Position numbers and translations under genes: made by a program. Below, one piece after another: positions 1 to 25,878 of a stretch of DNA of 34,585 nt. The notes under the pieces are model-generated. The model saw nothing but the letters and a program-made list of their open reading frames with translations, ran no database searches and was not told where the DNA came from. Source of the stretch: Candidatus Altiarchaeota archaeon. GTDB taxonomy: Archaea; Altiarchaeota; Altiarchaeia; IMC4; QMZM01. Positions within the stretch are counted from its first letter, which is position 1. Each line of letters opens with the position of its first letter. The stretch spans positions 1-34,585 of the forward strand of contig JAFGDV010000037.1 of NCBI GenBank assembly GCA_016931955.1. Direction: 5' to 3'.

Positions 1-1
1 C

Positions 2-394
2 CCTGTTGCTTGGGAGTCTCTGCCTGTGGATGATGTTTTATCGATTGGTTTGGTGAATGAGAGCCGTGTCCTTGATCCTGGTAAAGTATTGAGGTTCTTG
101 GACATTATGGAGAATGAAACATGCACTGATACCCTCATTAATCCCTGCTATAATGCGTCTGATTCAGATACATTTGATATCACCAAGTATGAGTGTAATA
201 AGCACTTTATGGGGGTCGGCGATTATGAGTTCTATTTCACGGTGACGGACTTGGATGATAATATACTGTCTCTGGGGGGCGTTAATTGTTCGACTGGAAT
301 CTCTCCCATGGACTATGACTATTTAACGAATATGAAGAGGTCTGCGGTGTTAGGTGACGATGTAGTAAAGATCTCATTTATGGTGTGGACGTAG
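2..394 (+). CDS. C-terminal part of a putative archaeal pilin-like/minor pilin protein (5'-truncated by the window edge)
   Basis: The frame is open from base 2 (PVAWESLPVDDVLSIGLV...LDPGKVLRF). It ends in KISFMVWT, the same terminal beta-strand + W-x ending as the two vWA pilin-like proteins downstream, and lies 3 nt before the next gene. Confidence 0.6.
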   Translation, partial: PVAWESLPVDDVLSIGLVNESRVLDPGKVLRFLDIMENETCTDTLINPCYNASDSDTFDITKYECNKHFMGVGDYEFYFTVTDLDDNILSLGGVNCSTGISPMDYDYLTNMKRSAVLGDDVVKISFMVWT

Positions 395-397
395 AAG

Positions 398-3300
398 ATG
401 AAAAATAAAGGTTACGCTATCATGATTGATGCGTTGGTCGCGGTTGTTTTTTTGTTGATTATGGTAACCGCCGTCTTCACTGTTGAGCTGTCTAAGACGT
501 CTAAGACCGAAGTAATGTCTTTTAAGGAGCTTCATTATGTCTCTGAGGATGTTCTTGATGTCTTGAACAAGAACGGCGTATTGGATGAGATTGCTACGTT
601 GTGGGCGGCCAACTCGACGCCTGGCTCTGAGGAGATGGAGAATGCGTCGATGATAGCTAAAGACTACTTGGAGAAGACGCTTCCTCCACATGTTGGCTAT
701 AGGTTGATTATTGAGGAGGGTTTGAATTCTGTTGTGGTCAACAGCTCTGATGAGTCCCGTATTTCATGGAATGATTCCTCTACTTCTACTCATTCTACAA
801 GGATCTTGGTCGGCTTTGGGAGTGGTCTGCCGACTTTCGCTCATATCTCGTCCGCTTCTTTGGATTCGTTGACGAGTAAGTCTGGCTCGGATTATGCCTA
901 CTTTGGCGGCTTCGTCGGTCAGGGTAATATCTCCCGCTTCATTGACCTGCCCTCTGACGCTAACATAACGAGGGTGTATTTGGAGCTTAACCCTGGGGAA
1001 GACTTTAAGCTGTACATAAATAACATCCAGTGCCCTGGGCCGGGGCCTGGGGGGATCTTTGACGGCATGGGCTTGGATCTGAGCGCCAGCAAATGGGATC
1101 TGACTTCTTGTAAGAACCTGTTTTCTGCTGGTCGGAATTGGGTTAGCATCAACTTCACCTCCACTAATGAGTATGATTTCGTCGGCGGCGGCTTTCTTAA
1201 GGTGGATTATATTACTGGTGAATGGGATAGGATTCCTGACTTCACCACCTACTGGTTTCCCGGCATCAAGGGTTTGATCAATGTCTACTCTGGATTCTAT
1301 GTCCCTGGGAACCTGAATGATATTGAGGTCTACCTGCACTACTTCCATGATCTGCCTGACGTCAACACATATTTCACCATCGCCGATAAAACAATCTACG
1401 AATCTGATACATTGGGTGAAGTGAACGTTACACTCGATTGGCTTTACTTATCTAACAAATTTGGCGGTCCTGGGCTGCTCGTGTCTGCTCTCAGTAATAA
1501 GACGGTGCCTTTGAAGTGGGGCACTGACGAATTCGCCGTGATGGCCTCAGGTAAAGGAACAGCCGACGCAGTACTGATCACCGACGTGTCGGGGAGCATG
1601 TTTGCTTATGCCTGGAGTTGCGACGTTATCGCTTCATCGTCATGTGATTGTAGCCAGGCTAGTAATGGGAAATATTGTTTTGCTCCTTGCTGTAGGAAAA
1701 GAATCAACGTTGCTATGGATGTTGATAAGGAATTCGTCGAGCAGATACTGAATACGTCTGGGACCAGCGTGGGTCTGGTTTCGTATAACGACAAAGTGAG
1801 GTCTTCGCATTCGTTAAGCATAGACAAAGTATCGTTGTTTACTCAGATAGATGGTTATGATGATTTCCCAGATAGGGCCACATGTATTTCTTGTGGGATA
1901 AATCAGGCAACGGCTATTCTAAAGCCCGTGACGGTGGTTTCTTATAATTTTGTCTCTGAGGGGAGTGTTTGGCGTTATTCTGTTGATTACCCGATTGGTG
2001 AGCCTCCGCTTGATGCTGAAGGGGATCCTTGGACGAATATCACTTATAATGATTCAGACTGGAGTGAAGGCGATGCGATTCTTGGTTTTGAAAGCATCCC
2101 TTATGCTCCAAACGTCGACACTGATATAGGAAATAACTTGAATGTTCTCCGCCCTAATCTCTGGGATATAGCTGCTGACCTGCCTCAGCCAGTTGACTTC
2201 ACTTCTGGATTGAATTCCTCAGGCAACACCTTCGGCCCGGATGCGGGAGACGACGGCTGGGACAATGAGACGGGAGTATATGGTGGCACGGGGACGAATG
2301 TTATCTTTACTAGTAATCAGTATCTAAGGGTAGACGCTTATGGGCGTACTGGAGGTGTTGGAAGAGCTGCTAGCGGAGCCTATGGAGTCCAGTTCAACAT
2401 AACTCAGGCCATGCTTGATACTCTCCAAGGCGGCGGAACTGCAGAGTTTTCCTTCAGGTGGCGCGCTGACCAGGCAGGGCTTTCAGGAGGTGAATGGTAC
2501 ACCATACATGCTAGATTTGGTAATAGTAGCGTTATGAACGATTTTATCTTGTATGGTCCAGGTAATGGAGATAATCTGGCTTGGACTACTTGGAGCGTTG
2601 ATGTTGGAAACCACATACAGGGTGTGGGATCGTATTATCTGGATTTTGGCGTCTATATAACCAGTTGTGGTAATAATTTAGACCATGTAGCGGTCGACTT
2701 CGACGACGTCGACTTGGTTATAACGAATGAGACTGGGAACTATTTCTTCCGCAAGGAGTTTAATGTGAGTAATGCGAAAAAGATCGTCAAGGCGAAACTG
2801 CATGTGCTCTCAGATGACCGAGCAGATGTGTACCTGAATGGCAGGCTCATAGACAGCGACTCGACAGAACATAATGCTGTATACTGGAACAGGGGCCCCA
2901 TAGAGGTTAATAAGACATATTTCGTCACAGGGAACAACGTGTTAGCGGTTAAACTATACAACAACGACCCAATTGCTGCGAAATTCGACCTAAAACTCAA
3001 CTACACAAACGACACAAAGAAAAAAGCCATGCTCGTGATGAGCGATGGAATAGCTAATACCCTACTTGACGGAACACGGATTTTGGTTGAGGGTTGTGAT
3101 AAACCTGCTTCAGTGGAAGCAGTAAACAAGGCATGCGAAGCCCGACAATACGGCATTGACGTCTATTCGGTAGCATTCGGATCCGGCGCGGATCCGTGCA
3201 CACTGAAGAAGATAGCGTGCTGGAATTGCAGCGCATGTGTCCCGACAGCCAACCCGAATAATCCTAACTGCTGGCTTTCAGGTGAAAGCTATACTACTTG

Positions 3301-4183
3301 TTCTCGTTTTTACAGTAGTAATGATGCGGATGAGCTTAAGAAGATCTATGGAGAGATCGCTAACAAGATAGCGAATGCCACCATTGAGTTGCAGATGATC
3401 AAAATAACCTTCGGCGAAGTCTCATTGGAGAACATACTCTACCCGGACTCGTACATAAAATACAGGGTAGGGGTTCCGCCGATGCTGAAGCCAGGAGAGA
3501 CATTGATCAACCTGGAAAGCACGAGATTCGGTAACACGATAAGCACTGGATCATTCACTGTGCCCGCCAAGACAAGGCCGATAGAGGCGAAGGTCACATC
3601 ATATTCAGGACCCTATTGGACCAAAAGCCTGAGGATCAATAGTTCAAGTACGTCAGGCTGGCATGAGGTCTACAACCTGACAGATGAATACGGCAACGAC
3701 TACATAACATTAGGCGACCCCTACATGATAAACATCCCAGCAAGCGACGTAGGAGTTGGAGACAACTTAGTGGAGATAAAAACAGGCGCCAACAGCAGCC
3801 ATGACGCCGGAGGCTCAGTAGATGACAAAGTTCTCTACTCCATAGCCATGAATACCTACACGGGCGTCGGAGAACCGAAGCCAAGCTCAGTCGGCTGCAA
3901 CTGGACGGTGGAGTTCTTCGACGGAACAAATGCTACCCTGATGGCCCCCTACAACTACAATGGACTGAAAAGATGCAACTACACCAGCCACAACATCTCC
4001 TACGACAAAACAAGCTCCGTGGATGATGCAGTTTATCGGCTGTTCACCCAACTGGATGAAGACGGCGACCATATGTTAGACGTGAAATTCGACCCAAACA
4101 GTGTCATAGTAGACACGAGAACCATTGGGGGCATAAGGTCTCTGTGGGGTCCTATACGGGTTAAACTGGAGCTATGGACCTAA
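398..4183 (+). CDS. Giant type IV pilin-like vWA adhesin (paralog A, 1261 aa) with carbohydrate-binding-like insertions
   Basis: Class III-like signal MKNKG|YAIMIDALVAVVFLLIMV. vWA MIDAS elements DVSGS, T(CISCG) and MLVMSDG. A W-R-Y...WxxxxYNDSDW...FRKEF...SDDRADVYLNG...GNNVLAV jelly-roll motif lies inside the vWA. Many N-x-S/T sequons. Confidence 0.8.
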   Translation: MKNKGYAIMIDALVAVVFLLIMVTAVFTVELSKTSKTEVMSFKELHYVSEDVLDVLNKNGVLDEIATLWAANSTPGSEEMENASMIAKDYLEKTLPPHVGYRLIIEEGLNSVVVNSSDESRISWNDSSTSTHSTRILVGFGSGLPTFAHISSASLDSLTSKSGSDYAYFGGFVGQGNISRFIDLPSDANITRVYLELNPGEDFKLYINNIQCPGPGPGGIFDGMGLDLSASKWDLTSCKNLFSAGRNWVSINFTSTNEYDFVGGGFLKVDYITGEWDRIPDFTTYWFPGIKGLINVYSGFYVPGNLNDIEVYLHYFHDLPDVNTYFTIADKTIYESDTLGEVNVTLDWLYLSNKFGGPGLLVSALSNKTVPLKWGTDEFAVMASGKGTADAVLITDVSGSMFAYAWSCDVIASSSCDCSQASNGKYCFAPCCRKRINVAMDVDKEFVEQILNTSGTSVGLVSYNDKVRSSHSLSIDKVSLFTQIDGYDDFPDRATCISCGINQATAILKPVTVVSYNFVSEGSVWRYSVDYPIGEPPLDAEGDPWTNITYNDSDWSEGDAILGFESIPYAPNVDTDIGNNLNVLRPNLWDIAADLPQPVDFTSGLNSSGNTFGPDAGDDGWDNETGVYGGTGTNVIFTSNQYLRVDAYGRTGGVGRAASGAYGVQFNITQAMLDTLQGGGTAEFSFRWRADQAGLSGGEWYTIHARFGNSSVMNDFILYGPGNGDNLAWTTWSVDVGNHIQGVGSYYLDFGVYITSCGNNLDHVAVDFDDVDLVITNETGNYFFRKEFNVSNAKKIVKAKLHVLSDDRADVYLNGRLIDSDSTEHNAVYWNRGPIEVNKTYFVTGNNVLAVKLYNNDPIAAKFDLKLNYTNDTKKKAMLVMSDGIANTLLDGTRILVEGCDKPASVEAVNKACEARQYGIDVYSVAFGSGADPCTLKKIACWNCSACVPTANPNNPNCWLSGESYTTCSRFYSSNDADELKKIYGEIANKIANATIELQMIKITFGEVSLENILYPDSYIKYRVGVPPMLKPGETLINLESTRFGNTISTGSFTVPAKTRPIEAKVTSYSGPYWTKSLRINSSSTSGWHEVYNLTDEYGNDYITLGDPYMINIPASDVGVGDNLVEIKTGANSSHDAGGSVDDKVLYSIAMNTYTGVGEPKPSSVGCNWTVEFFDGTNATLMAPYNYNGLKRCNYTSHNISYDKTSSVDDAVYRLFTQLDEDGDHMLDVKFDPNSVIVDTRTIGGIRSLWGPIRVKLELWT

Positions 4184-4185
4184 GA

Positions 4186-6045
4186 ATGATACGAATAAAA
4201 AACAGGAGCGGGTATCTGTTCACGATATCGACGATAATCCTGATAATACCACTAGTGTATCTTATCTCCTATTATGGCGGCGTTCAAGAAACCCAGTTAG
4301 ACGATACCTTGGGCAGGATAAGATGTGATGAACTCCACTACTACGTCGAAGATGTTAAAAGGGATATGGGGCGTGCAGTGGAGATATTCGGTAGGAGGGC
4401 GGCAAGTTACGCAATAGACAACGTCGTCAACTCATTTGAGGGTCTTGAGGATTACAAGTTTAATTGCACATCCCGGTGCGGAGTCGACTGCAGTGAGTTC
4501 TCCTTCGAAACAAACGGTTCAGAGGCCGCGATAGCCGAACTGATACTCTGCGGAACACTCCACGGCAGAAATGTGTCTGCCATGGTCAACCACACCCTCC
4601 CCCTCTGGATAGAAAAGATGAGGGAAGAAGGGGCGCGGATGAACTTCGAAGTCGATATCTCAGCTAAAGAGATCCACATAATCCCAATAGATGCCTGGAA
4701 TTTCGCGGTCATGGTAGACAACAAAGTAAGCGTCAGAGACAGAAAAGGACTATGCTATTACACGGAAAACATAATCACAGTCCACTCCAACTCCTCGATC
4801 ATAGGCCTACCAGACCCACAATACGTCCTAAATACGAAAGGAAACAGAAGACCAATACAAAACTGCACAAAATCCTCTTTTGGAGTTTTAGAGAATCTAG
4901 TAGGCTCTGCATCTGCGAGCGGTGAGGGAAGCGCTTCAGGTACTACATTCATCTACAGCAGCAATATAGGCAATGTTGCCCAATTGATAAACTACTGTAA
5001 TACTAAGGACCCTGATGAATTAAGCCAAGAAATTTTTGTTATGGATATTGCAGGTGGAATAGTCTGCAACAGCCCTTTATGGCGGGCCTGTTTTAACGCA
5101 ACCTCTCCAAGACACTTTGCAGCTGTGATAGACTATGGTCCAGCAAACACATGTGATATGTGTCCTGGGATGGTACCTCGTATCTGTGATACGGGCAGTC
5201 TTAATCTGCCTAATGGGGATTGTATTATGATAATAAGCAATGATACGTGTGTTCCTCCGATTCATGCGGTTGTTATGGGTCTGGATTTTGATTCACTCAA
5301 CACGTCCTGTTATTATGTCAGCGACGTCAGCGGAAACTATGATGGGGATTGTGGGTTTGATACCCCCAATGGGGGGTCGTTCTTCGACCGCCTTGACGGG
5401 AACATGAATCTCTCAGAGAAATACGTGAACCAATCCCTTAAGTATTTTAACAACCCGCTCATCGGCATGGAATCCTTCGTAAGCCTGCACGATCTGAGTA
5501 GTCTAAAGGGGGGAGGACATGACGTTAAAGTGAACTTCAGCAGCACGTGGGTGGACTACCTCTACTGGCAGGACGTTGGAGGATGCGGGGTCATGGCCTT
5601 CTGCGGCGAAGAAGAGGAGAAATTCAAACTAGACTGTGCCCACGCACACGGCTACCGCATAGACACAAGCTGTGAAAGCGTCACCGGTTGCCCCCGATGC
5701 CCTGTGACTGCAGCTTTGATACGATGCGGTATGGAAAATCCGCCTGGCTCCGGAAACTATGATGTAAAATTCACTCTTCAGATTACTGATGTGTGGGCTA
5801 CTTCAATGGATCTATTAGAAAATCCTGTGATGGGATTAGAGATAAATGGCAATCCTTCATCTTTTACTATGGATAAAGTAGTTGGTGAAACAGGTAAATA
5901 CGAGCACATAGAGACAGGTCTTGCAGGGAATGATAGAGTAAAAGGTAATGTAACTATAAGGGAGATAATCTGTCCTTTGGTTGAAAACTCAACAGATAAT
6001 AGTCGGATAACACAGCCGGGTTTCAATCACCCATCGTGTCCATAG
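4186..6045 (+). CDS. Large Cys-rich pilin-like protein (paralog B)
   Basis: MIRIKNRSG|YLFTISTIILIIPLVYL class III-like N-terminus, followed by a long helix and a Cys-rich extracellular region with SFFDRLDGN and WVDYLYW motifs. Start placed at ATG 4186, just after the upstream stop (the ORF track gives 4174). Confidence 0.75.
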   Translation: MIRIKNRSGYLFTISTIILIIPLVYLISYYGGVQETQLDDTLGRIRCDELHYYVEDVKRDMGRAVEIFGRRAASYAIDNVVNSFEGLEDYKFNCTSRCGVDCSEFSFETNGSEAAIAELILCGTLHGRNVSAMVNHTLPLWIEKMREEGARMNFEVDISAKEIHIIPIDAWNFAVMVDNKVSVRDRKGLCYYTENIITVHSNSSIIGLPDPQYVLNTKGNRRPIQNCTKSSFGVLENLVGSASASGEGSASGTTFIYSSNIGNVAQLINYCNTKDPDELSQEIFVMDIAGGIVCNSPLWRACFNATSPRHFAAVIDYGPANTCDMCPGMVPRICDTGSLNLPNGDCIMIISNDTCVPPIHAVVMGLDFDSLNTSCYYVSDVSGNYDGDCGFDTPNGGSFFDRLDGNMNLSEKYVNQSLKYFNNPLIGMESFVSLHDLSSLKGGGHDVKVNFSSTWVDYLYWQDVGGCGVMAFCGEEEEKFKLDCAHAHGYRIDTSCESVTGCPRCPVTAALIRCGMENPPGSGNYDVKFTLQITDVWATSMDLLENPVMGLEINGNPSSFTMDKVVGETGKYEHIETGLAGNDRVKGNVTIREIICPLVENSTDNSRITQPGFNHPSCP

Positions 6046-6055
6046 AAGACAAAGA

Positions 6056-8776
6056 ATGGAAAACCGTGGTTACGCTATTTTGTTGGATTCGCTGATGGCG
6101 TTGATCTTGATACTGATTGTGGCGTCGACGGTGATAACCATAGAGCATTCTAGGACCTCACGGACAGAATCGATGGAGTACACGAAACTGCACTACATGT
6201 CAGAGGATGCATTGGATGTGTTGAACAAGAACGGCATATTGGATGAGATAGCTACATTGTGGGCGGCTAATTCGACGCCTGGCTCAGAAGAGATGCAGAA
6301 CGCGTCAAATATATCCTCTTACTACCTAGAAAAAATCCTGCCACCCAATGCAGGCTACGCCCTCCTAATAGAAGGGGACGAGATAACCAACTCCAGCGGA
6401 GACCCTCAGAGAATAGTGGAACAAAAAACTTCATCGAAGACCAACTCAGTAAGGCTCCTAGTAGGATACGCCAGCGGACTCCCCACCCGCGGCCTAGTAG
6501 CGAGGGCGGCACTATCCAACATAAAAGAAAAAACGACCTCCAGCTTCCTATACTTTGGCGGATTCGTCGGACAAGGAAACATCTCACAGACGATGACGCT
6601 ACCAGAGAACATAACCATACAGGAAGCCTACATGGAACTCAATGTGGGAGACGGCTTCGACTTATACATAAACGGCAACTTCTGCAGAAACCTTCCAGCT
6701 CCAGGAGCAGTGGGTATGTCAGCTAACATAAAAGAAGACATAACAGCATGCAACGGCCTCATCGATCAAAGAGGGGAAAGCAGTCCAAACCTGTTCGAGA
6801 TAAGATTCACCGGAGACAACATAAGCAGGCAATATATTGGCGGAGGATTCATAGAAGTCAGATACAATACCTCAGAGATGGACACATCCCCTGAAACAGG
6901 ACATATGAGGTTCTATTTCCCCCAGATTGAGGGCATAATAAACTATTACTCATCGTTCTATGTTCCCGGCTGGGTTGATTCGATGACTTCAAACATAAGC
7001 TTCAAGAACAACTACACAACGTTCATGTATATAGGCGATAAACTGGTATTCAGCGTTAATGGAAGCAGCACAGCACAAACTGTTGAGAACTCATCCATTG
7101 AACTGTTGAATCTGCTTGGAGCGTCGGCGGTAAGCGAAAAAACCGTTCCCATAAGGATCGGCACAGGAGACCTCTACTATAGTGTGACAAGAGCATTAGG
7201 TGATGCAGACGTCATACTGATAACGGATCTATCTGGGAGCATGAGGTGGAGAATAGGCTACAATGACTCAACACAGGGCGTGCAGAGGAACTGCGACGAT
7301 CTGCAACTGTACGACAACGACACCAGACGGGTGAGCCTCGCTAAATGCTTGGACAAGGACTTCATTAATGCGATAATGAACACATCAGGGAATAGGGTGG
7401 GTTTGGTCGGCTTCTCAACCAACGTGGATAATTCCCATAACCTAAGCGACAATGAGAGCTCATTGATAGATCACATAAACAATTACTCTGACCTGCCCGT
7501 TGGAGGGACCTGCATATGTTGCGCGATAAACCAAGCAATAGAGCTGCTGCAGAACTCAACACCAACGCGTAGAAAATACATCATCGTTATGACGGATGGA
7601 GTTACAGGATACCATTGCGGCGGATGTTCTCTCACTGCTCCCTGCAACTGCGGCGGAGTCTGCAGCAATACCGTGGGAACGTATGAGTGCGATGGAAACC
7701 CAAGCGACTGTGATGGGACACAATGCGATACAGCCATAAACGATAGCATATGCAGTTCAAAGCGCGCACACGACGTCATGAATGCCACCGTCCATTCCAT
7801 AGGCTTTGGTCCGATAGCCACCGACTGCTCCAACGCAAACAAAACCCTCCTAAGAATAGCGGAGTGTGGTAATGGCTCCTATTATGGGAGTGAGAACGCG
7901 AGCGAGCTCGCTGAAATATATGCCAGCATTGCAGGTTATATCATAAACGCAAGCTACTATTCCCAGACAATAGCCCTCACAGGCACTGGGACAGAAAACC
8001 TGACAGGCTCAATCCTCTATGGATACCCTCAATCTTATCTGGACTTCACCTACACGGCGCCTAATGCTTCCAGGTATGGGCTGATATCGCTCACACAGAA
8101 ATCCGACAGATTCAATGATCCAATAAACTGCGTCGGCCACATCACGATACCAGAGAACGTGAACGTGTCGGAGATGAAGGTGACATCCTACTCAGCCGAG
8201 TTCTGGACAGACTACTTGAGGATAGATAACAGCCTGATCTCGCAGGAGGTCTACAAGCTATGGGAGCAGTATCCAGGGACTCCCTACCCCCTGCTCGGAG
8301 ACCCCTACGTGGTGAACGTACCTAACTCGGAGGTGGTCGTCAAAGCTGGTGTCAACGATCTGACTATCGGAACAGGAAACAGTGAAACGGAGCGCACAAA
8401 CTGCTCCATAGACGACAGGGCGATATATACCCTCTGGATAAGGTCCCTGGTAGGCTACGGCGACATCTACCCCTCCAGTGAAGGCTGCGTATGGGACATA
8501 GAATTCGAGGATGGGAGCTTAATAGATGACCTGCAGATCCCGGCAGGATACGTTGGAAGCAAAAACTGCAGCTATACTTCCTCCCTCATCGGAGGATACG
8601 AGAACGACTCCATAAATGATGCCGTCTATAGGCTGCTCTCCGGACTAGACTTAGATGATGATGGGATGGTTGACATACTCATAGACCCCTCCCTGATAGA
8701 GTTCAAGACGATGAGCACTGGAGGCGTCAGGTCCCTGTGGGGTCCGGTTGCAGTCAAACTTGTGGTCTGGATGTAA
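6056..8776 (+). CDS. Giant type IV pilin-like vWA adhesin (paralog A', 906 aa)
   Basis: MENRG|YAILLDSLMALILILIV. vWA motifs DLSGS, TCICC and IIVMTDG. Colinear with 398..4183 (LHYxSEDxLDVLNKNG, YFGGFVGQGNIS, GGxRSLWGP). Confidence 0.8.
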   Translation: MENRGYAILLDSLMALILILIVASTVITIEHSRTSRTESMEYTKLHYMSEDALDVLNKNGILDEIATLWAANSTPGSEEMQNASNISSYYLEKILPPNAGYALLIEGDEITNSSGDPQRIVEQKTSSKTNSVRLLVGYASGLPTRGLVARAALSNIKEKTTSSFLYFGGFVGQGNISQTMTLPENITIQEAYMELNVGDGFDLYINGNFCRNLPAPGAVGMSANIKEDITACNGLIDQRGESSPNLFEIRFTGDNISRQYIGGGFIEVRYNTSEMDTSPETGHMRFYFPQIEGIINYYSSFYVPGWVDSMTSNISFKNNYTTFMYIGDKLVFSVNGSSTAQTVENSSIELLNLLGASAVSEKTVPIRIGTGDLYYSVTRALGDADVILITDLSGSMRWRIGYNDSTQGVQRNCDDLQLYDNDTRRVSLAKCLDKDFINAIMNTSGNRVGLVGFSTNVDNSHNLSDNESSLIDHINNYSDLPVGGTCICCAINQAIELLQNSTPTRRKYIIVMTDGVTGYHCGGCSLTAPCNCGGVCSNTVGTYECDGNPSDCDGTQCDTAINDSICSSKRAHDVMNATVHSIGFGPIATDCSNANKTLLRIAECGNGSYYGSENASELAEIYASIAGYIINASYYSQTIALTGTGTENLTGSILYGYPQSYLDFTYTAPNASRYGLISLTQKSDRFNDPINCVGHITIPENVNVSEMKVTSYSAEFWTDYLRIDNSLISQEVYKLWEQYPGTPYPLLGDPYVVNVPNSEVVVKAGVNDLTIGTGNSETERTNCSIDDRAIYTLWIRSLVGYGDIYPSSEGCVWDIEFEDGSLIDDLQIPAGYVGSKNCSYTSSLIGGYENDSINDAVYRLLSGLDLDDDGMVDILIDPSLIEFKTMSTGGVRSLWGPVAVKLVVWM

Positions 8777-8777
8777 G

Positions 8778-10730
8778 ATGAAAATCTCAAAGAACAAGAG
8801 AGGGTTTTTGTTGACGATAGCTACAATACTGTTGATTATTCCCCTGATACTGTTGATCTCCTATTACACTGGGATATCCGAGACAGGCAGCCAGGATGTT
8901 ATGGGCAAGATGAGATGTGATGAACTGCACTACTTCGTGGAAGACGTTAAAAGAGACATGCAGAGGTCTGTAACGATCTTCGGCAGAAGATCGGCAATAT
9001 ACGCCCTAGACCATCTAGTGGAAACTGGGCAGCCCTTTGAGGACTATGAATTCACATGCACCCCACAATGTGGAGTGGATTGCGGTGAATTCTTTTTCGA
9101 TGACCTGGGTTCAGAAGCAGCCATTGCCGAACTCACTATGTGCGGAACCCTTTATGGAGCGAATGTCACATACATGGTGAACCACACCATACCTGAGTGG
9201 ATCAGGAACATCGAATCCTATGCCGAAAAGATGCACTTCATATTGGATTTAAATGTTTCAGAGATCAAAGTGGTTCCAATGGATGCATGGGATTTTGCGC
9301 TCATAGTGGACTACAAGATCAGAGTACAAGATGAGGAGGGGATGTGCTATTATACTGAAAACATCATACAGGTGATATCCAACTCATCAATAATAGGCCT
9401 GGAAGACCCATTGTATGTGTTGCAGACAGATGGTCACATCTTGAAATACATAGTGAACTGCACAGTGGATCTGGACGTTAAGGCGACGGCGGGCTGCAGC
9501 AAAAGCAGTCTGGGGAATGGGGTGGCCACCGGCAGAATCGTCTACTACTCAGAGATTGACGGAGTAGCTAACTACTGTGATATCACGTCAGACATCAACG
9601 ACATAATACTCGTCATGGACAAGGCGATAGGCAGCTGCAATCAGTTTGGAGACGAATGCTGGAACATAAGCGCTGTAAACCATTTCGCGGGCGTGATAGA
9701 CTACGGCCCAAACAACATAAACAGCATAGTAAACAAATGCGACGTCAGCATCCCATGGGTATTGGATACAGGTAAATTAGATGACGGCGAAACTGGATTC
9801 GGGGGTGGATGGGCCAGGAACCCCGCCTGCGACGGAGGCGACATAAGCCGCGACGGCTGCGTAGTCATATACAATGACCCAATATGCGGGATATACGAGG
9901 TCAGGATAGGCTACGACAGCAATACAACAAACACCACCTGCTACTACGTGAGCGACATAGAGGAATACTACAACACAAAATGCGCAGTTAACTACTCAAA
10001 CGGGCCCTCCTTCTTCGACCGCCTTGACGGGAACCTGAATCTCTCAGAGAAATACGTGAGCCAGTCCATGGAATACTTCAACACGACCCTCATCGGGATA
10101 GAGACCCTCGTACAGCTCTATGAACTGGATTCATATCATTCGATTTATCCCAGCATACCGGTTTATGCAAATGCCACATGGGTTGACTACCTCTACTGGC
10201 AGGGCGTTGTAGGATGCGGGGTTATAAGCTCATGCGAGGTCGGCAAATTCAGATTAAACCTGGACTGTGCGCATTCATTCAAACATGGTGTAGGCACAGA
10301 CTGCGCATTTGTCTCAGAGTGTTACTACTGTGGAGACGGATCCTGCGACATAGGGGAGACATGCGTTAGCTGCCCAGCCGACTGCAGCTGCCCATCCTGT
10401 CCGACACAGGCAAGCCTGGAGATCTGCTCGACAGACATAGGCTCCAATAAATACGATGTCACCTTCACGTTGACTGTGACAAATGCGTCAGGAGGGTTCG
10501 ACCTCAGCGCCCTGCCAGAGATAAACGTCACCATAGAGGGTATCATCGCTGACCACACCATGAATCAGATAGGTGTTGGAACATACGAGTACACAGAGGC
10601 GGGCGTCGGCAAAAATGACCAAATAAAGGGTAATGTGACATTGATTCCGCCGCTTATCGGAGCCGGCTGCCCGACGCTGAGCGATGAGACACCATACGAT
10701 CAAGCAAAGTCTATCCCAGACACCTGCTGA
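8778..10730 (+). CDS. Large Cys-rich pilin-like protein (paralog B')
   Basis: MKISKNKRG|FLLTIATILLIIPLILL; ATG 8778 lies 1 nt after the upstream TAA. Colinear with 4186..6045 (RCDELHYxVEDVKRDM, SFFDRLDGN, WVDYLYWQ), plus an extra CGDGSCDIGETCVSCPADC module. Confidence 0.75.
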   Translation: MKISKNKRGFLLTIATILLIIPLILLISYYTGISETGSQDVMGKMRCDELHYFVEDVKRDMQRSVTIFGRRSAIYALDHLVETGQPFEDYEFTCTPQCGVDCGEFFFDDLGSEAAIAELTMCGTLYGANVTYMVNHTIPEWIRNIESYAEKMHFILDLNVSEIKVVPMDAWDFALIVDYKIRVQDEEGMCYYTENIIQVISNSSIIGLEDPLYVLQTDGHILKYIVNCTVDLDVKATAGCSKSSLGNGVATGRIVYYSEIDGVANYCDITSDINDIILVMDKAIGSCNQFGDECWNISAVNHFAGVIDYGPNNINSIVNKCDVSIPWVLDTGKLDDGETGFGGGWARNPACDGGDISRDGCVVIYNDPICGIYEVRIGYDSNTTNTTCYYVSDIEEYYNTKCAVNYSNGPSFFDRLDGNLNLSEKYVSQSMEYFNTTLIGIETLVQLYELDSYHSIYPSIPVYANATWVDYLYWQGVVGCGVISSCEVGKFRLNLDCAHSFKHGVGTDCAFVSECYYCGDGSCDIGETCVSCPADCSCPSCPTQASLEICSTDIGSNKYDVTFTLTVTNASGGFDLSALPEINVTIEGIIADHTMNQIGVGTYEYTEAGVGKNDQIKGNVTLIPPLIGAGCPTLSDETPYDQAKSIPDTC

Positions 10731-10784
10731 GGCAGGTGTCAGCCATATTTTTAGTAAGCAATCATATAGATTACATTACATTGA

Positions 10785-11855
10785 GTGAAAGTGGAAAATG
10801 AGGAATCACCCTCGGTAGAGGAAGATAGGCTGATGAAGGAGCAGGCTGAGAAGGAAAAGAGGCTTGATAAACTCGTCAGGGACAAGATGGAGGCCCTCAG
10901 CAAGATACGCGGCCTAGTCAGCCAGCAAGCCGAACTGGAGAAGGAACTGGGGGGCATAGATGAGGGGGAGGGGGAGTTGGACAGCAACTTCAAAGACCTC
11001 AGGAGAAGGATAAAAGAGGTCTCGGCTGAATTGGATTCCGCAGCAGACGAGGAAGCGGAGCTGGAAATACACAAGAAAAAGATCCAGCTCATAGCGGAAA
11101 GCGCGAAAGTCGAAGAAGAACTCGACGAAATAACGAAGAAGAAGGTCGAAATACTCGACAAAGTGAAGGAGCTGACGAAGAACAGAGTAGAGCTCGAGGA
11201 ATCGCTTGACTCCGTGAAGGCGGAGGGGATAAAGGTCTCAAGGGAACTGGAAGAACTGAAGAAAACAACGTTTGAATACATGCACCAGATGAGCAAGGAA
11301 ATAGACGAACTCGACCGCGGCGGAAAGCCAACAGAGGCTCCGGTAGAACAGCCGCCTGCTGAGGCTCCTGTGGAAGCTCCTGTAGAGGCTCCTGTGGAAG
11401 CTCCTGTAGAGGCTCCTGTGGAAGCTCCTGTAGAGGCTCCGGTGGAAGCTCCTGTAGAACAGCCGCCTGTAACAGGAGAAGCGCCCAAGAAGGGGAAAAA
11501 AGGCCTCTTCGGGGGCGTATTCGGCAAGAAGAAACCCAAAGAAGAGATGAATATCGGCATGATTAAGGAGGTCCTTGGCATCATGGATAACCTGTTGGAG
11601 AAGCTCCCAGAAGACGTGATCAATGAATTCTCAGAGTCAGAGGAATCTAAGAGATACGAGAAACTCTACTCTGTAGTAAACGAATACAAGGGAGAAGAAG
11701 AGCAGAAGGACTACATAAAGAAAAACGCCAAAACAGTATTAACCAAGATCGATGAACTCCTTAAAAAACTCCCAGAGGACGCGCTTAATGAATTCTCTGA
11801 GTCAGAGGAGTTTGAGAGCTACAGCAGAGTACTGGAAGAGTACGGTATAAGGTGA
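10785..11855 (+). CDS. Coiled-coil protein with EAPV repeat linker and duplicated C-terminal helical motif
   Basis: E/K-rich heptad region, (EAPV)n linker, KKGLFGGVFGKKK, and two copies of DxLLxKLPEDxxNEFSESEE. GTG start is uncertain. Confidence 0.75.
   Translation: MKVENEESPSVEEDRLMKEQAEKEKRLDKLVRDKMEALSKIRGLVSQQAELEKELGGIDEGEGELDSNFKDLRRRIKEVSAELDSAADEEAELEIHKKKIQLIAESAKVEEELDEITKKKVEILDKVKELTKNRVELEESLDSVKAEGIKVSRELEELKKTTFEYMHQMSKEIDELDRGGKPTEAPVEQPPAEAPVEAPVEAPVEAPVEAPVEAPVEAPVEAPVEQPPVTGEAPKKGKKGLFGGVFGKKKPKEEMNIGMIKEVLGIMDNLLEKLPEDVINEFSESEESKRYEKLYSVVNEYKGEEEQKDYIKKNAKTVLTKIDELLKKLPEDALNEFSESEEFESYSRVLEEYGIR
11334..11469 (+). repeat. In-frame 12-nt tandem repeat (8 units at 11361-11456) encoding EAPV
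   Basis: Alternating GAGGCTCCTGTG / GAAGCTCCTGTA units, with GAACAGCCGCCTG on both sides. Confidence 0.95.
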
Positions 11856-11862
11856 TTAATAG

Positions 11863-12840
11863 ATGGGCCTGTTGGATAAGATAAAGAAAAAGAAGGAGGA
11901 GGGCGCTGAAGGTAAGGAGCTTCCATCCGGGAAACCCCTCACCGTTAAAAGCGAGGAAGAGTTCCTGGAGAAATGCAGGGGTTTGACGAAGGACTTCAGG
12001 GGTGTACTCTTACTATCTGGGGACGTTGAAGGCGAGCGTTACTCAGCCAGTCTGATAATCGACAAAGGCAGCATAATCGCTTCAACATTCGAGTTCGACG
12101 GCCTTATAATGTTCAGGGAGCAGGCCATAAACGAGATAACAGGTAAGCTCAAGGGGAGCAAGGGTATCTTGAACATATTCGAATTCGATGACGAGGACAT
12201 GCGACTCATCAGGGATACTAATAAATCCGCCTTCCTGAGCAGTCCAGTGCCTTTGAGCAGCCTAGGCCTTAAGATAAAGCTCCTAGTGGAGCAATGGGTT
12301 GAAAAACAAGAAGGTGAGGGTGCTAGACCGCTTAAACTCCCCGAGCTATTCAAGACCCGAGGCACATTCAATCTGCTTGAGCTTGCCCGAAGCCAGGAGA
12401 AGATCAAGGAAACAGGGAAGAAAGAGGAAAAAATAGGGGGATTAGAGGACGATAAACTTGGAGATATCGATCTTAGGGGAATAGAGAATCTGCTTGGAGG
12501 TGGTGGTGCAGCCGTCGATATCAGGAAGCTTGAGGAGCTTAAGAGGATAAAGGAGGAGAGGCAGAGAAAGATCGCAGAAAAACTGGCTGCAGTGAGAAAG
12601 GGGGAGGGTTCAAAAGAGAAACCGACTGAAGGTAAAAGGGTTCAGACAACAATAGACAAGTTATACAGTCTCGTGAGGAAATACAAGAAACTGAGGATAG
12701 ACGATAAGCTGGCGCACACCCTTGGAGTGAATAGGGCGCAGATCGAGGAATGGGCGGTGATCCTCGAAGAACATGATCTCATCGAACTACGTTATCCGAC
12801 TATTGGGGAACCAGAGATCCGGGTGAAAGGCGATAAATAG
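11863..12840 (+). CDS. DUF2226-like N-terminal domain protein with C-terminal winged-helix-like domain
   Basis: FRGVLLL...SLIIDKGSIIAS...EQAINEI...ILNIFEF resembles DUF2226. The C-terminal TTIDKLYSLV...LGVNRAQIEEWAVILEEHDLIELRYP looks like a wHTH. GGTGA RBS upstream. Confidence 0.6.
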   Translation: MGLLDKIKKKKEEGAEGKELPSGKPLTVKSEEEFLEKCRGLTKDFRGVLLLSGDVEGERYSASLIIDKGSIIASTFEFDGLIMFREQAINEITGKLKGSKGILNIFEFDDEDMRLIRDTNKSAFLSSPVPLSSLGLKIKLLVEQWVEKQEGEGARPLKLPELFKTRGTFNLLELARSQEKIKETGKKEEKIGGLEDDKLGDIDLRGIENLLGGGGAAVDIRKLEELKRIKEERQRKIAEKLAAVRKGEGSKEKPTEGKRVQTTIDKLYSLVRKYKKLRIDDKLAHTLGVNRAQIEEWAVILEEHDLIELRYPTIGEPEIRVKGDK

Positions 12841-12897: not shown

Positions 12898-14490
12898 ATG
12901 GCTGAACAGGCTAATGGGAAAGAAGAGGAGGGCGCAGGGAGTGAGTTCTCAAAGGTTAAGGAGAAGGTACTGGAGAAAAAGGAACGCCTTGTAGAGTCCT
13001 ATAATGTTAGATGTGATGAAGTCGAGGTAGAAATAAGGATAGTGATAAAGAATTTCAAGCATACCTACAAGGTCATCGTCCCAGAGGTTAGCATAGCGAC
13101 TTCGGCCTTATTGGATGATATAAAGGAGAAACTGATCGGCGCCATTGAAGTCAATCCTACAGAGATATTCGACACAAAGCTGATGGATGAGTTGAAAACC
13201 GAGCTGAAGGATGATGCTGCGGTGCTCCTCAGTGAAGAACTCCCCGACCTTGGCGAGAAGACCAAGAATCAGTTTATACTGGATCTGATGAACGACCTGC
13301 TTGGCTTAGGCAATATTGAAATCTTCCTCAACGATGACCAGATAGAGGAGATCGTCATCAACTCGGCGAAGGAGCCAGTGAGGGTATACCATAAAAAATA
13401 CGGCTGGCTTGAGTCGAACATAACGTTGAAAAGTGAGGCCCAGATATCCAATTACGCGAACATAATAGCGAGGCGCATTGGGAGGGAGATAACAACATTG
13501 AATCCATTACTGGACGCCCATCTGATGACGAAGGACAGAGCCAACGCCATACTAACCCCGATATCGACGAAAGGCAATACGGTAACAATAAGAAAATTCG
13601 CTCGAGACCCGTGGACTGCCCCGGATTTTATAAAGAATAGGACAGCAAGCTCTGAGGTTCTGGCATTGATCTGGCTTTGCATCCAATACGAGATGAACAT
13701 CCTCATCTCTGGTGGAACAGGCTCTGGGAAGACTTCTTTGCTGAACGTCTGTATGCCGTTCATGCCACCCAACCATAGGATAATATCCATCGAGGATACT
13801 CGAGAGCTGCAGCTGCCGAAGTTCCTCTACTGGTGCCCGCTGACGACGAGGCCTGCAAACCCCGAAGGCAAGGGGGAGGTTACGATGCTTGACCTGGTCG
13901 TTAACTCCCTCAGGATGAGGCCTGACCGGATTATCATGGGCGAGATCCGTAAGCAAAGGGAAGCTGAGGTCCTCTTTGAGGCGATGCATACTGGCCACTC
14001 AGTGTACGGCACACTCCATGCGGACACATGCGCTCAGACCATTACGAGACTTGTTAATCCCCCGATAAACATACCAGAGAGCATGCTTGACTCAGTGCAC
14101 CTGAACGTTGTGATGTTCAGGGATCGGAGGCTGGGTGTAAGGAGGATCTTCGAGGTGGGTGAATTCCTTGAAGAGATAGACCCTAACACGAGGAGGCTGC
14201 ACTTTAATCCCAGCATACTCTACCGATGGGATCCGAGGACAGATGATATAGTCCCAGTCGAGAAGAGCGGCATAAGACTCTATGAGAAGATAGGATCACA
14301 TACTGGCCTATCAGCTGATGAGATCAGGGCAGACATAGACCTGAAGAAGAGGATCCTTGATTGGCTGGTCGAACACAACACTCGTTCCATAGAGGAAATG
14401 GGCACAGTGATGAACAGATACTACGTAGACAGAAACACGGTAATAGATATGGTGGAAAAGAATCAGGACCCTAAGGGGCTGTTTGAGTGA
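12898..14490 (+). CDS. Type II/IV secretion (pilus assembly) ATPase, VirB11/CpaF/TadA family
   Basis: Walker A GGTGSGKTS, Asp box SIEDTREL, LRMRPDRIIMGEIR (Walker B), His box MHTGHSVYGTLHA. Confidence 0.95.
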   Translation: MAEQANGKEEEGAGSEFSKVKEKVLEKKERLVESYNVRCDEVEVEIRIVIKNFKHTYKVIVPEVSIATSALLDDIKEKLIGAIEVNPTEIFDTKLMDELKTELKDDAAVLLSEELPDLGEKTKNQFILDLMNDLLGLGNIEIFLNDDQIEEIVINSAKEPVRVYHKKYGWLESNITLKSEAQISNYANIIARRIGREITTLNPLLDAHLMTKDRANAILTPISTKGNTVTIRKFARDPWTAPDFIKNRTASSEVLALIWLCIQYEMNILISGGTGSGKTSLLNVCMPFMPPNHRIISIEDTRELQLPKFLYWCPLTTRPANPEGKGEVTMLDLVVNSLRMRPDRIIMGEIRKQREAEVLFEAMHTGHSVYGTLHADTCAQTITRLVNPPINIPESMLDSVHLNVVMFRDRRLGVRRIFEVGEFLEEIDPNTRRLHFNPSILYRWDPRTDDIVPVEKSGIRLYEKIGSHTGLSADEIRADIDLKKRILDWLVEHNTRSIEEMGTVMNRYYVDRNTVIDMVEKNQDPKGLFE

Positions 14491-23006: not shown

Positions 23007-23873
23007 CTATCTTTCAACTATTTTGACGAAGGCGTCGAATAGTGGTGTGTCGGTAGTCACAGAGAGGAAATTAACCCCTGCGTCATCACAGATCTTCCTC
23101 ACCCCCCCCATGTGTTGCTTGATCTTCTTTAGATACTGCTTCTTGAATTCTGGGCTAAGGTAGGTCCTCTCGCTTTCTGAACTCTCCATGTCTTCGAATT
23201 TTATGTCATCTGTCCACTTTAGCGTTATCTCCCCCGGATCAAGGGTCTGGACTAGGATAGCTTCCTTTGAGTATTTTGCTATCCGGTATATGGCATATTC
23301 TAGGGACTCCATGGGCTCGATGAAGTCGGAGATTATGACGATAAAGGACCTGGATTTTATCATTTTAGTATACTGCTCTATGCATCTTTCAAGGTTTGTC
23401 TGTCCCCCCTGTTTTGACTTATCAAGTATCTCAACCAGCCTGAAGAATTGCATCTTTCCCTTCTTGGGTTGCATAATATCGGTCACTCTGTTAGAAAACA
23501 AGGCGGCACCGAATTTCTCGTACCTGGCCACTGCTAAGTAGGCGAAGCCTACGGCGATGCTTCCCGCATAATCAAATTTCCTCATCCCAGAAACAGCGAA
23601 ATCCATGCTCGCACTGGAGTCAACTAGCAGGTGCAATATGAGGTCTTTTTCTTCCTCGAAGCGTCTTATGTAGAGCCTTTCAGTTCTCGCGTATACCCTC
23701 CAATCAATGGACCTGAAGTCGTCTCCTGGATAATATTCCCTGTAGTCGGCTATCTCTATGCCTCTGCCCTGCCTTATTGAGCGTCTGCTCCCCATGTAGA
23801 TGCTTGAGACCTTCTTTCTAGCTAGTAGGTCAAGTCTTTTGAGCTGGTCTAAAAAGGTGGAATCGACAGCCAC
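23007..23873 (-). CDS. DUF58 family protein (MoxR-associated, vWA-like)
   Basis: GRGIEIADYREYYPGDDFRSIDWRVYART, LLVDSSASMDF, IVIISDF. Confidence 0.93.
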   Translation of the reverse strand: MAVDSTFLDQLKRLDLLARKKVSSIYMGSRRSIRQGRGIEIADYREYYPGDDFRSIDWRVYARTERLYIRRFEEEKDLILHLLVDSSASMDFAVSGMRKFDYAGSIAVGFAYLAVARYEKFGAALFSNRVTDIMQPKKGKMQFFRLVEILDKSKQGGQTNLERCIEQYTKMIKSRSFIVIISDFIEPMESLEYAIYRIAKYSKEAILVQTLDPGEITLKWTDDIKFEDMESSESERTYLSPEFKKQYLKKIKQHMGGVRKICDDAGVNFLSVTTDTPLFDAFVKIVER

Positions 23874-23874
23874 T

Positions 23875-24957
23875 CTACAACCCCTTCAACATCTCAGTTA
23901 TGACGTCGTCTGTCGTTACACCCTTACGCTCTGATTCGAAATTCAGTATCAGCCTATGGCGCAGAACCGGATAAGCCATAGCCTTTATGTCTTCCCGGCT
24001 GACGTAATTCCTGCCGTTGATTAGTGCCCTAGCCTTTGCTGCTAGAACCAAACCTATTGTAGCCCTTGGCGATGCCCCATAGTCCAGGTATTTCTTCGCG
24101 ACGTCGCCTGAAATGGGCCTGGTCTTTGTCACAATAGACAGGGCGTACCTTTTTATCTCATCAGCGATGGGGACCTTACGCGTTAGTTCTTGGATTAGCA
24201 GTAGTTTATCCTTGCTCAGCGCTTTTGTTATCGCAGGCGTTGATCCTCCGGTGTATAGGTCGAGGATTCTGCCTTCGTCTTCGGGCTTTGGGTAGCCTAC
24301 AAGGATTTTAAGCAGGAATCTGTCAACCTGTGCCTCAGGTAGTGGATATGTTCCCTCCATCTCAATGGGGTTCTGTGTTGCCAAAACGATGAATGGATTA
24401 TCCAGTGGATAGGTGGATGTACCAACTGAGACCTGTTTCTCCTGCATGGCCTCCAATAATGCCGACTGCGTTTTTGGGGTTGCCCGGTTTATCTCATCAG
24501 CCAGCAGGATGTTTGTGAAAACCGGCCCCTTCTCGAACTTAAACACCTTCCTACCGTCGCGTTCCTCCACAACATAGGTCCCAGTTATGTCGGAAGGCAT
24601 CAGGTCGGGTGTACACTGTACTCTCTTAAAGTCTAGATCCATTATCCTCGATAGTGTACTTATCATCAGCGTCTTCCCCAGTCCGGGGAATCCCTCAAGG
24701 AGCGCATGGTTTTTCGTGAATATGGCAATGAGTATCTGCTCTATTACCTCCTCCTGTCCTGCTATGACGTTTCTTACCTCTTTTCGGATCTCATCGTATA
24801 TGTCCTTCATCTTGTGGTAGACTTCCTTGACTTCGTGTCTTTCGGAGGGCACATCCAAGAGGTTTACTGGTCTCCCCTGTCTTTCTTGTTCCCCTCTTAT
24901 GCTCTCTATCTCCGACCATATGCTCCCACCTATCTTTGTTTGTTGTTTGTCTCTCAT
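23875..24957 (-). CDS. moxR: MoxR family AAA+ ATPase
   Basis: LEGFPGLGKT, RVQCTPDLMPSDITG, LADEINRATPKTQSALLEAMQE, ATQNPIEMEGTYPLPEAQVDRF, GASPRA. Confidence 0.95.
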   Translation of the reverse strand: MRDKQQTKIGGSIWSEIESIRGEQERQGRPVNLLDVPSERHEVKEVYHKMKDIYDEIRKEVRNVIAGQEEVIEQILIAIFTKNHALLEGFPGLGKTLMISTLSRIMDLDFKRVQCTPDLMPSDITGTYVVEERDGRKVFKFEKGPVFTNILLADEINRATPKTQSALLEAMQEKQVSVGTSTYPLDNPFIVLATQNPIEMEGTYPLPEAQVDRFLLKILVGYPKPEDEGRILDLYTGGSTPAITKALSKDKLLLIQELTRKVPIADEIKRYALSIVTKTRPISGDVAKKYLDYGASPRATIGLVLAAKARALINGRNYVSREDIKAMAYPVLRHRLILNFESERKGVTTDDVITEMLKGL

Positions 24958-24959
24958 TT

Positions 24960-25877
24960 CTATTCCTGCGTTATTTTTTGTAGTGATTGGAAGTAGGCCT
25001 TGATCAATTCCCTATACTCTACGGGGTCTTGTTCCGGGATTTCAGCTGATTTGCCCTTGAGGTCGCCAGCGAACTCTCCTTTTAGTCTCTCTTCGCCGAC
25101 GTCTTTGATCTCGATCTCTCCGCCATATTCTGGATGCATCTCCATGTCCATGTTTTTCCCGGCTATCTTCGCAGAGGATTCTTCACCGTATATGTCTGAG
25201 CCGCCTTCTTCTCCCGTTCCTCCGCCGAATCCGGGAATCGGTCCCTCGTTGACGCCAGGTAACTCTCCTCCAATATCCCCACCAACCATCTCGTCTTCTA
25301 CCTTGTGTTTTGTCTCGAATCTTTCGTCTTCGCTCGCATGGAAGCTGTCGTCTGGTTGTATGTCGAAGCCGGTGAAGTCTTCTATCCTGTCTATGAGGTC
25401 CTTGTCTATGAATCCTCTGAGGTTGAACCCTAGGTCTTCGATGTTTATAAAGTTTATGGAGAGAAAGACAAAAACCAAGACGATCGCTATTATGGCCCTG
25501 GACATTAGCTCGTTCGTGTTGAGGAAGGATGAATACCTCACATCATCCATCTTCTTAGAGACCTCCTTTATGAGGCTGTCGACGATTACATTATGGGTCC
25601 TTCTATTATCGTATGCCGTTTGCAGTCTCTCATCTAGTGCTGGGTAGCTTTTTATCACGGAGTTGATGAGGTTCAACTTATGTAGGCGATACATTAAACC
25701 TATTATGGCGTAGATGATTGCTGGGCAGGCTGCTATGATCGCAGCTATCCCGAACAACCTTAGGATTACTGCAAACACAAGGAAGACTATGAGTGAGTTG
25801 AGGATGGTACCTAGCAGGTTTATCTTGAACGCTAGCCTCTTAACCTCTGTCAGCCTTAGGATTATCGGGTCTTTCAT
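24960..25877 (-). CDS. MoxR-cluster membrane protein with acidic Gly-rich C-terminus
   Basis: Three hydrophobic segments, YPALDERLQTAYDN, an acidic tail and terminal YRELIKAYF. Start moved to ATG 25877, just after the upstream stop. Confidence 0.75.
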   Translation of the reverse strand: MKDPIILRLTEVKRLAFKINLLGTILNSLIVFLVFAVILRLFGIAAIIAACPAIIYAIIGLMYRLHKLNLINSVIKSYPALDERLQTAYDNRRTHNVIVDSLIKEVSKKMDDVRYSSFLNTNELMSRAIIAIVLVFVFLSINFINIEDLGFNLRGFIDKDLIDRIEDFTGFDIQPDDSFHASEDERFETKHKVEDEMVGGDIGGELPGVNEGPIPGFGGGTGEEGGSDIYGEESSAKIAGKNMDMEMHPEYGGEIEIKDVGEERLKGEFAGDLKGKSAEIPEQDPVEYRELIKAYFQSLQKITQE

Positions 25878-25878
25878 C

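Follow-up and report, generated by a model that had tools for sequence, protein, structure and literature searches.

Which part of an archaeal type IV pilus would two tandem pairs of very large pilin-like proteins build, and what could the second pair add to the first? This question is raised by the window analysed here, the whole 34,585-nt stretch at positions 1 to 34,585 of contig JAFGDV010000037.1 (assembly GCA_016931955.1, Candidatus Altiarchaeota archaeon), in which four open reading frames (ORFs) follow one another in the order A1, B1, A2 and B2. In agreement with a preliminary description of the locus, they encode large proteins (1261, 619, 906 and 650 aa), are closely spaced (2, 10 and 1 nt apart) and form two A-B units, whose counterparts are 33-44% identical; a further ORF, U, ends 3 nt before A1. 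The A proteins contain a vWA domain (von Willebrand factor A), and the B proteins are rich in cysteine (4.2 and 4.9%, against 1.7 and 2.4% in the A proteins). We propose that the two diverged A-B copies, together with U, form the complex that caps and starts one system 1 pilus and give it two alternative adhesive tips, a reading that we place slightly on the probable side. The tip position, the order of the subunits, the interchangeability of the sets on one filament and the difference in their ligands are what we infer. In the literature available to us, the start and the tip make-up of archaeal type IV pili were not found resolved, and system 1 proteins are listed there as 'surface protein' or 'predicted pilin'. 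Below, G-, C-, L- and P-labels denote genomes, contigs, loci and proteins of the comparison set, and G000 is the genome of the window organism.

The U-A-B unit and its place in system 1

That the window genes belong to an archaeal system 1 (Epd-like) type IV pilus is well supported, and the arCOG assignment of the window proteins rests on the published filing of their orthologues rather than on profile runs with the window proteins themselves. The A orthologues P0020, P0026 and P0033, which share 46-48% identity with A2 in the best stretch, stand under arCOG05787 in table S4 of PMC13705601; the neighbouring genes upstream are filed there under arCOG07613/06117 and arCOG03821, and the table gives arCOG06495 for one neighbour downstream and arCOG01817/01811/01812/01808 for the adjoining ATPase and TadC genes. 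Table S3 of the same paper assigns 05787, 07613, 03821 and 06495 to system 1 and 06117 to system 2, and orthologues of A, of U, of the Glu5 pilin P and, in one case, of B are filed under system 1. The families are already known as parts of such pili, and their tip role is a published hypothesis. The supplement of PMC4858521 gives a Pyrococcus locus as 03822-03821-05788-05787-03512, that is, P-P-arCOG05788-arCOG05787-large protein, and the paper hypothesised that two large clade 1 proteins are PilY-like tip adhesins.

In component families and gene order, the window system resembles the clade 1/system 1 pilus of Methanococcales, Methanobacteriales, Thermococcales and DPANN archaea (PMC4858521, PMC13705601); the families held in common through orthologues are arCOG05787, 07613, 03821, 06495, 01817 and 01811/01812. 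Unlike system 1 as described in the accessible parts of these papers, it carries a vWA cargo with a metal ion-dependent adhesion site (MIDAS) and nested inserts, and the A-B pair is tandemly duplicated in the window. Thermococcales-type large adhesins of system 1 contain DUF2341, which domain searches did not find in the window proteins or in 28 homologues, where vWA and other domains take its place, and we therefore call the window system a variant of system 1. Those accounts place other minor pilins near the base, and in their accessible parts neither a strand mechanism nor a trimer nor split forms are described.

Among named homologues, the closest come from Altiarchaeota and more distant ones from Woese- and Aenigmarchaeota. 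The A family gave 456 matches among 7991 candidates scored, and the B profile 844 representatives at 50% identity. Among 61 genomes of the phylum, A was matched in 55 and B in 51, and both were present in 13 of the 13 near-complete ones. The usual order in 50 loci is P, U, A, B, X2, ATPase, TadC, TadC. Of the 35 long B genes preceded by more than 1 kb of sequence, 31 have A directly 5' (in three of these, a 215-aa gene intervenes). Among 25 loci in which the first A contains the N-terminal half, U is directly 5' of A in 23. The co-occurrence and adjacency of A and B that the preliminary description had anticipated are thus found in related genomes, whereas its A+B heterodimer is the less likely unit. 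Because the conserved unit is U-A-B behind a Glu5 pilin and U is doubled in G026 (order U-U-A-B-A-B), a trimeric tip is likelier, with U as its probable third subunit. In one genus, a 210-219-aa Thr- and Cys-rich membrane-anchored protein is encoded between A and B (L013:5704-6336, L026:9317-9976, L032:8601-9254). Neither A nor B was matched in G001-G004, one family of the class (65-87% complete).

Most relatives have a single A-B pair at the main locus; two long B genes occur in 6 of the 61 genomes, and the tandem A-B-A-B arrangement in 3 of the 61 (G000, G021 and G026). A1 and A2 share 42% identity over 535 columns and 33% over 437, and B1 and B2 share 44% over 648. First and second copies of the three tandem genomes form separate orthologous clades in the same order, both for B (SH-aLRT 97 and 99; quick tree, 43 rows) and for A (FastTree 1.0 and 0.99; C-terminal scaffold, 35 rows). 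By these trees, the tandem duplication is older than the split of the three genomes, and a recent duplication is ruled out by these clades together with the low A1/A2 and B1/B2 identities. The first copies diverge faster, with 50-63% identity to their orthologues in most scaffold regions versus 70-75% for the second copies, and both pairs are still full length in the window. Switching of DNA cassettes was rejected, as no long identical or inverted repeats were found and only 76-84% paralogous stretches connect B1 and B2. A mis-assembly of the tandem is unlikely, given one 11,333-nt contig of a DNA run that spans 58-11390 at even depth, although the run is possibly the source sample and so not independent. 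The contig start (window 1-112) falls in a short near-identical repeat; the first 87 nt of the window lie on a contig of about 2x depth, and another contig shares 58-112 and then diverges; the repeat and the depth suggest that a second U upstream probably broke the assembly, as in the G026 order. In another lineage, G016-G019, a very long A is accompanied by a B of its own. At L028/L066 (G033:C7), U is followed by a broken or split A, an intact A and one B, with A amplified without B.

The pairs had been placed upstream of an ATPase gene; this gene is present and clusters with the main-locus ATPases of relatives, but it is not adjacent, two genes (X1 and X2) separating it from B2. No TadC gene was found downstream of the ATPase, and no major pilin inside the window. 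A TadC pair at G000:C19:2063-3990 is 55-58% identical to the TadC genes beside orthologous ATPases and is the likely partner of the window ATPase. System 1 pili use a dedicated prepilin peptidase, EppA, and a small major pilin; a candidate peptidase (C2:26887-27774) and candidate pilins (on C7, C14, C33 and C40) were recognised by eye in G000. A second small pilin series lies at G000:C33:203-5371 (L070) in the same order with no ATPase nearby; it consists of Glu5 pilins, a U-like protein (E 2e-25), a 129-aa A-like protein (E 0.009) and a 274-aa B-like protein (E 0.007).

Adhesin domains and the C-terminal strand

The A2 model shows N-terminal helices and a small sheet, beta domains, the vWA domain (aa 378-641), further beta domains and a last strand (898-905). 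The vWA profile scores above the Pfam cut-off in A2 only (E 2e-10); the score in A1 is weak (E 0.004) because the domain is split by an insert. The closest folds to the A2 vWA domain are the tip adhesins Mfa5 (6tnj; Z 23.9, root-mean-square deviation 3.1, 222 aligned), Streptococcus sanguinis PilB (7b7p; Z 23.2, 2.9, 229 aligned), SpaC (Z 21.7) and PitA, which, with the filing of the A orthologues, agrees with the first description of these proteins as type IV pilus components. The likeness to vWA pilus adhesins (PilB, Mfa5, SpaC of Lactobacillus (6m48), RrgA and GBS104; Z 19-24) includes the MIDAS. Unlike in these adhesins, the vWA domain of A is not appended but nested three domains deep in a predicted pilin hairpin, and some orthologues dispense with it, forms of 634-703 aa lacking it. 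MIDAS residues are kept in 80-82 of 82 rows and are intact in A2 and also in A1 (D396/S398/S400/T495/D883), where the spacing from Thr to Asp is 386 aa versus 28 in A2, with the insert sitting between. Metal-dependent ligand binding by the A vWA domain is putative.

For the A1 insert, NCBIfam gave a weak match to a rhamnosidase's sugar-binding domain, well short of the cut-off (E 0.0017); there was no credible PDB sequence match, and the best Atlas match, 0.76, was uninformative. More than 60 extra residues occur at this site in 26 of the 74 homologues having both anchors, and the domains inserted in A homologues (28 proteins) include CUB, LamG, GH2 sugar-binding, CARDB, FG-GAP and GH115-C. 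B2 is composed of a core (aa 10-233 and 400-505), an inserted swivelling-type domain (235-380; Z about 9) and a C-terminal Ig/CBM56-like domain (540-648; Z 8.7), and the middling Z values of the two added domains (range 8-9.5) say nothing of function. Short B relatives (about 300 aa) share the core and lack both added domains. The colinear scaffolds with differing surface parts that had been noted are borne out, the variable parts being surface domains, inserts in the vWA domain of A and domains on B, and these may set the ligand. The A family thereby points to where DPANN archaea place their variable binding domains, which are candidate host- or surface-recognition modules.

Both the A2 and the B2 model begin with long N-terminal helices followed by strands. 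Fold searches with the full-length models gave no pilin among the matches listed, which were filled by vWA, Ig and swivelling domains. There are weak Pfam links to DUF7288 and DUF7262 (5 and 4 of 62 rows, best E 2.5e-6), and PDB sequence searches with the profiles of the A N-terminal half and of B gave nothing credible. An Atlas search with the B core returned short DPANN relatives at 0.95-0.96 and, as a lead only, DUF7286 at 0.88; DUF7286 and DUF7288 profiles had no match in G000. Complex prediction of L030 B residues 20-506 with a 143-residue minimal A scored 0.20, 0.51 and 0.23 (mark 0.32), with controls not folded, and is evidence neither way. A natural A-B fusion was sought in 128 new B-family representatives; in the four long members, the N-terminal domain is an unrelated one rather than A. 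P0304, P0320, P0321 and P0357 are B-family pilins behind a secreted N-terminal domain and a membrane segment, one of them named Aenigmarchaeota.

The A family forms a size series from 141 to 1824 aa: proteins of 141-172 aa, in which the last strand comes straight after the pilin half; of 246-288 aa, with the C-terminal module (C-module); of 634-703 aa, without vWA; of about 880-950 aa, with vWA; and of up to 1824 aa, with inserts. In A, the whole adhesin cassette lies between the pilin half and the conserved C-terminal strand. We sorted the A-related ORFs of 130 loci, chosen from hit lists, by profiles of the N-terminal half (N-half), the vWA domain and the C-module; the genomes are incomplete and related to each other. 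In L071-L130 there are 13 complete ORFs with the C-module only, all of which end in the strand and none of which has a class III leader; most start with an ordinary-looking signal peptide (by eye). Among 23 N-half-only ORFs, the strand is the last element in 1 and not in the other 22 (3 of them cut off, 2 short fragments); a class III leader with Asp at +6 is present in 20 of these 22. Both halves occur in 14 of the 37 genomes with fetched loci; an N-half-only gene is present in 14 of the 16 genomes having a C-module-only gene, and the reverse holds for 14 of 21. Short B, putative strand donor and N-half genes are adjacent in G017 and G018. At L129:1-6757 (G008:C45), two strand-ending proteins, one of 1484 aa, stand in tandem before one short B, like alternative donors.

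By analogy, the split and fused A forms suggest an arrangement like that of PilK and PilY1. As described in PMC13533445, bacteria obtain the strand either in cis, from GspK or CpaL, where a large insertion precedes it, or in trans, from PilC/PilY1. A resembles Caulobacter crescentus CpaL/TadG and PilK-PilC/PilY1 (PMC13533445) in its pilin-like N-terminus, its large adhesin insertion and, by prediction, a C-terminal strand that would finish the N-terminal sheet, either in cis or in trans. Unlike these, the A family is archaeal and has cis and trans forms in one family, often in one genome; its donor is a module of about 110 residues, whereas PilK-PilC/PilY1 systems have a beta-propeller; Asp+6 is found in A and no acid in B; and no sequence or fold match to CpaL, PilK or PilY1 proteins was obtained. 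What appears new here, as the sequences suggest, is the cassette between pilin half and strand, together with the split into a strand-less pilin and a strand-ending secreted protein in relatives.

A proposed tip complex and its alternatives

Each of the four proteins has one hydrophobic segment right after a basic leader that ends in Gly, with the junctions KG|Y, RSG|Y, RG|Y and RG|F in A1, B1, A2 and B2. The relaxed basic-Gly leader pattern also occurs in the homologues, in 103 of 120 for each of the A and B families; the strict FlaFind motif, applied here as a sequence pattern, fits 31 of the 103 in A and 74 of the 103 in B. Of the class III-like signals first ascribed to the four proteins, the basic-Gly leader and helix are seen in all four, and the strict form in B2 only. 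None of the four has Glu at +5, which is present in 9 of 9 P pilins checked and in the system 1 pilins of M. maripaludis (PMC3875500). Asp or Glu is found at +6 in 21 of 21 anchored U rows (of 23), and an invariant Asp at +6 in 76 of 76 anchored A rows (of 82); Asp or Glu occurs within +1 to +12 in 0 of 145 anchored B rows (of 148). The missing Glu5, previously read as a tip mark, is indeed absent from all four proteins but is not diagnostic of a tip role, because U, A and B all lack it, A has Asp+6 and only B is acid-free. By analogy with bacteria, the charge rule would make B apical, and the strand rule A.

The proposed tip would arise as follows. A prepilin peptidase would cleave each leader behind its Gly, and P, U, A and B would bundle their N-terminal helices. 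The last strand of A is predicted to fold back and to complete its own N-terminal pilin-half sheet, so that 760-1120 adhesin residues (beta domains, vWA and optional inserts) would loop out of one hairpin, as in Caulobacter CpaL. In split relatives, where the split itself is seen in the sequence, the strand would be donated in trans, like that of PilC/PilY1 to PilK. The MIDAS is intact, and domains that vary between copies and species may determine the ligand. The window ATPase and the C19 TadC pair would assemble either set. In a wider form, which we hold tentatively and rate as somewhat short of probable, archaeal system 1 pili would be primed by a U-A-B tip licensed by strand addition, with a cis-to-trans series in one family, and the tandem copies would be interchangeable and bind different ligands. 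Interchangeable trimeric tips are known from bacteria (PMC12075869), and alternative bacterial tips also from PMC13759059. The Altiarchaeota sets resemble the interchangeable minor-pilin tips of PMC12075869 in being paralogous sets with a conserved scaffold and variable exposed domains in one genome; the bacterial sets were shown by genetics, whereas those here are deduced from genes, stand in tandem in one operon-like run and belong to an archaeon that is non-predatory as far as known.

If this wider form is true, it would extend strand addition to archaea; the mechanism was demonstrated in 2026, in bacteria alone, and the same work proposed it for the last universal ancestor. PMC13533445 argues that strand addition may be ancestral, and its accessible text mentions archaea four times, never on tip complexes, and does not analyse them. 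A literature search with little cover of subscription journals found no account of archaeal tip strand addition, of the split arrangement or of these Altiarchaeota proteins. Thermococcales, which are genetically tractable, have orthologues of A, so that the family lends itself to direct testing.

Several observations weigh against a U-A-B tip with two alternative A-B sets. The apical-subunit charge signature belongs to B, not A, and three of the four window proteins carry Tyr at +1 and miss the strict FlaFind motif. Seven of the 21 genomes with an N-half-only gene show no C-module-only gene in the fetched loci. G005 (93% complete) encodes a strand-ending secreted protein, yet its only A is intact, and G008 also has strand donors without a strand-less A. 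In a mean-field coevolution analysis of 162 intact A proteins (effective number of sequences, Neff, 117), the last strand took part in 6 of the 25 highest-ranked N-half/C-module pairs, where about 2 were expected by column share; support for strand pairing from this source is weak, and a search for more minimal A proteins returned 6, too few to improve it. The B copies that adjoin long A genes are not a single clade (p-AU 0.024 with 18 rows, the group having been named after the trees were seen), which indicates that duplication or re-pairing happened more than once and that A-B pairing by copy does not hold strictly from lineage to lineage. Most relatives have a second, short B locus, to which no match was found in G000, G021 and G026.

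This last point fits a different explanation, which we consider unlikely: that the pairs are the tip sets of two assembly machines, one with the window ATPase and the other with a second ATPase-TadC-TadC locus on C14, where a long pair would replace the short A/B set. Most relatives indeed carry two B genes, a long one at the main locus and a short one next to a second ATPase, and the C14 ATPase of G000 falls in the second clade, yet no half-A genes were found in G000. Against this, G014, G017 and G019 have two long B genes plus a short one; with the tandem genomes at 73-92% completeness, the short set may simply not have been assembled, and the remote U-A-B-like series on C33 could serve another machine.

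Slightly less likely still, B could be the apical, PilK-like subunit that takes a strand from A or from a secreted protein, or all four proteins could lie in one larger tip or along the filament. Strand-ending secreted proteins are found directly upstream of short B, and pilY1 adjoins pilX in bacteria. G005 and G008, as stated, have such proteins without a strand-less A, and B alone is acid-free in its N-terminal helix, the mark of PilK in PMC13533445. In the 141-172-aa A relatives and in U, however, the strand follows the previous strand after a short turn, and the strand thus belongs to the A/U fold. Strand-less A pilins also need a donor, the short B genes of genomes that have a short intact A (G010, G011, G028, G029 and G030) have no upstream donor, and the top-ranked coevolving pair joins the A N-half to the C-module (weak).

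It is very improbable that the proteins are membrane-anchored adhesins on an uncleaved helix or a short bindosome-like stub with no extended filament tip: the failure of three of the four to fit the strict motif, the lack of TadC and major pilin genes in the window and the lack of a filament found shown for these organisms in the literature available are countered by the basic-Gly leaders of the homologues, by the conserved synteny with Glu5 pilins, ATPase and two TadC genes, and by a genome that has a TadC pair, candidate major pilins and a candidate peptidase.

Window features and neighbouring genes

Coordinates of the tip-complex candidates and of the genes downstream are collected in Table 1. 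For B1, an overlapping ATG at 4174 would give 623 aa, and the ATG at 4186, which gives 619 aa, is the most likely start.

Table 1. Features of the tip-complex locus, in window positions
Feature	Position	Strand	Basis or remark
U, small minor pilin, 3' part only (in relatives of arCOG07613 type)	2..394	+	U-family hidden Markov model E 7e-33; 5' end lost at contig start
A1, pilin-like vWA protein, 1261 aa	398..4183	+	ORF, alignment to A2, profile matches
Parts of A1: pilin half at the N-terminus (about aa 6-140), beta-rich domains, MIDAS-bearing vWA, C-terminal module ending in conserved strand			
Insert in the vWA domain of A1, about 355 residues	1925..3007	+	A1/A2 alignment; main difference of A1 from A2
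B1, cysteine-rich pilin-like protein, 619 aa	4186..6045	+	no acidic residue in N-terminal helix
A2, pilin-like vWA protein, 906 aa	6056..8776	+	AlphaFold2 model, mean pLDDT (predicted local distance difference test) 87.7; vWA without insert
vWA domain of A2, aa 378-641	7187..7978	+	fold match, intact MIDAS
C-terminal beta-strand of A2, aa 898-905	8747..8770	+	strand in model; by prediction, would finish the sheet of the N-terminal pilin half
B2, cysteine-rich pilin-like protein, 650 aa	8778..10730	+	model pLDDT 91.3
X1, coiled-coil protein with EAPV repeats	10785..11855	+	precedes X2 in only a few loci
X2, conserved gene	11863..12840	+	directly 5' of ATPase in most main loci
Secretion/pilus assembly ATPase	12898..14490	+	T2SSE E 1e-34, FlaI-like E 7e-85

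Two RNA contig sets gave no real coverage of the window, and a sigma-70 promoter scan, a model ill-suited to archaea, gave matches at chance level. The X1 gene contains nine 12-nt EAPV repeats at 11331-11474. X2 matched no Pfam family; its last 65 residues are strongly conserved, and its middle is variable, with total lengths of 280 to 690 aa. Farther downstream, the minus strand carries a row of genes at 23007-26535 for a MoxR AAA ATPase, a DUF58/vWA protein, a DUF7502 protein and a coiled-coil membrane protein, and in relatives many short-B loci have similar MoxR genes upstream. At 26575-27123, also on the minus strand, a cysteine-rich protein with a T4SS/VirB2-type pilin domain is encoded (Pfam E 4e-10).

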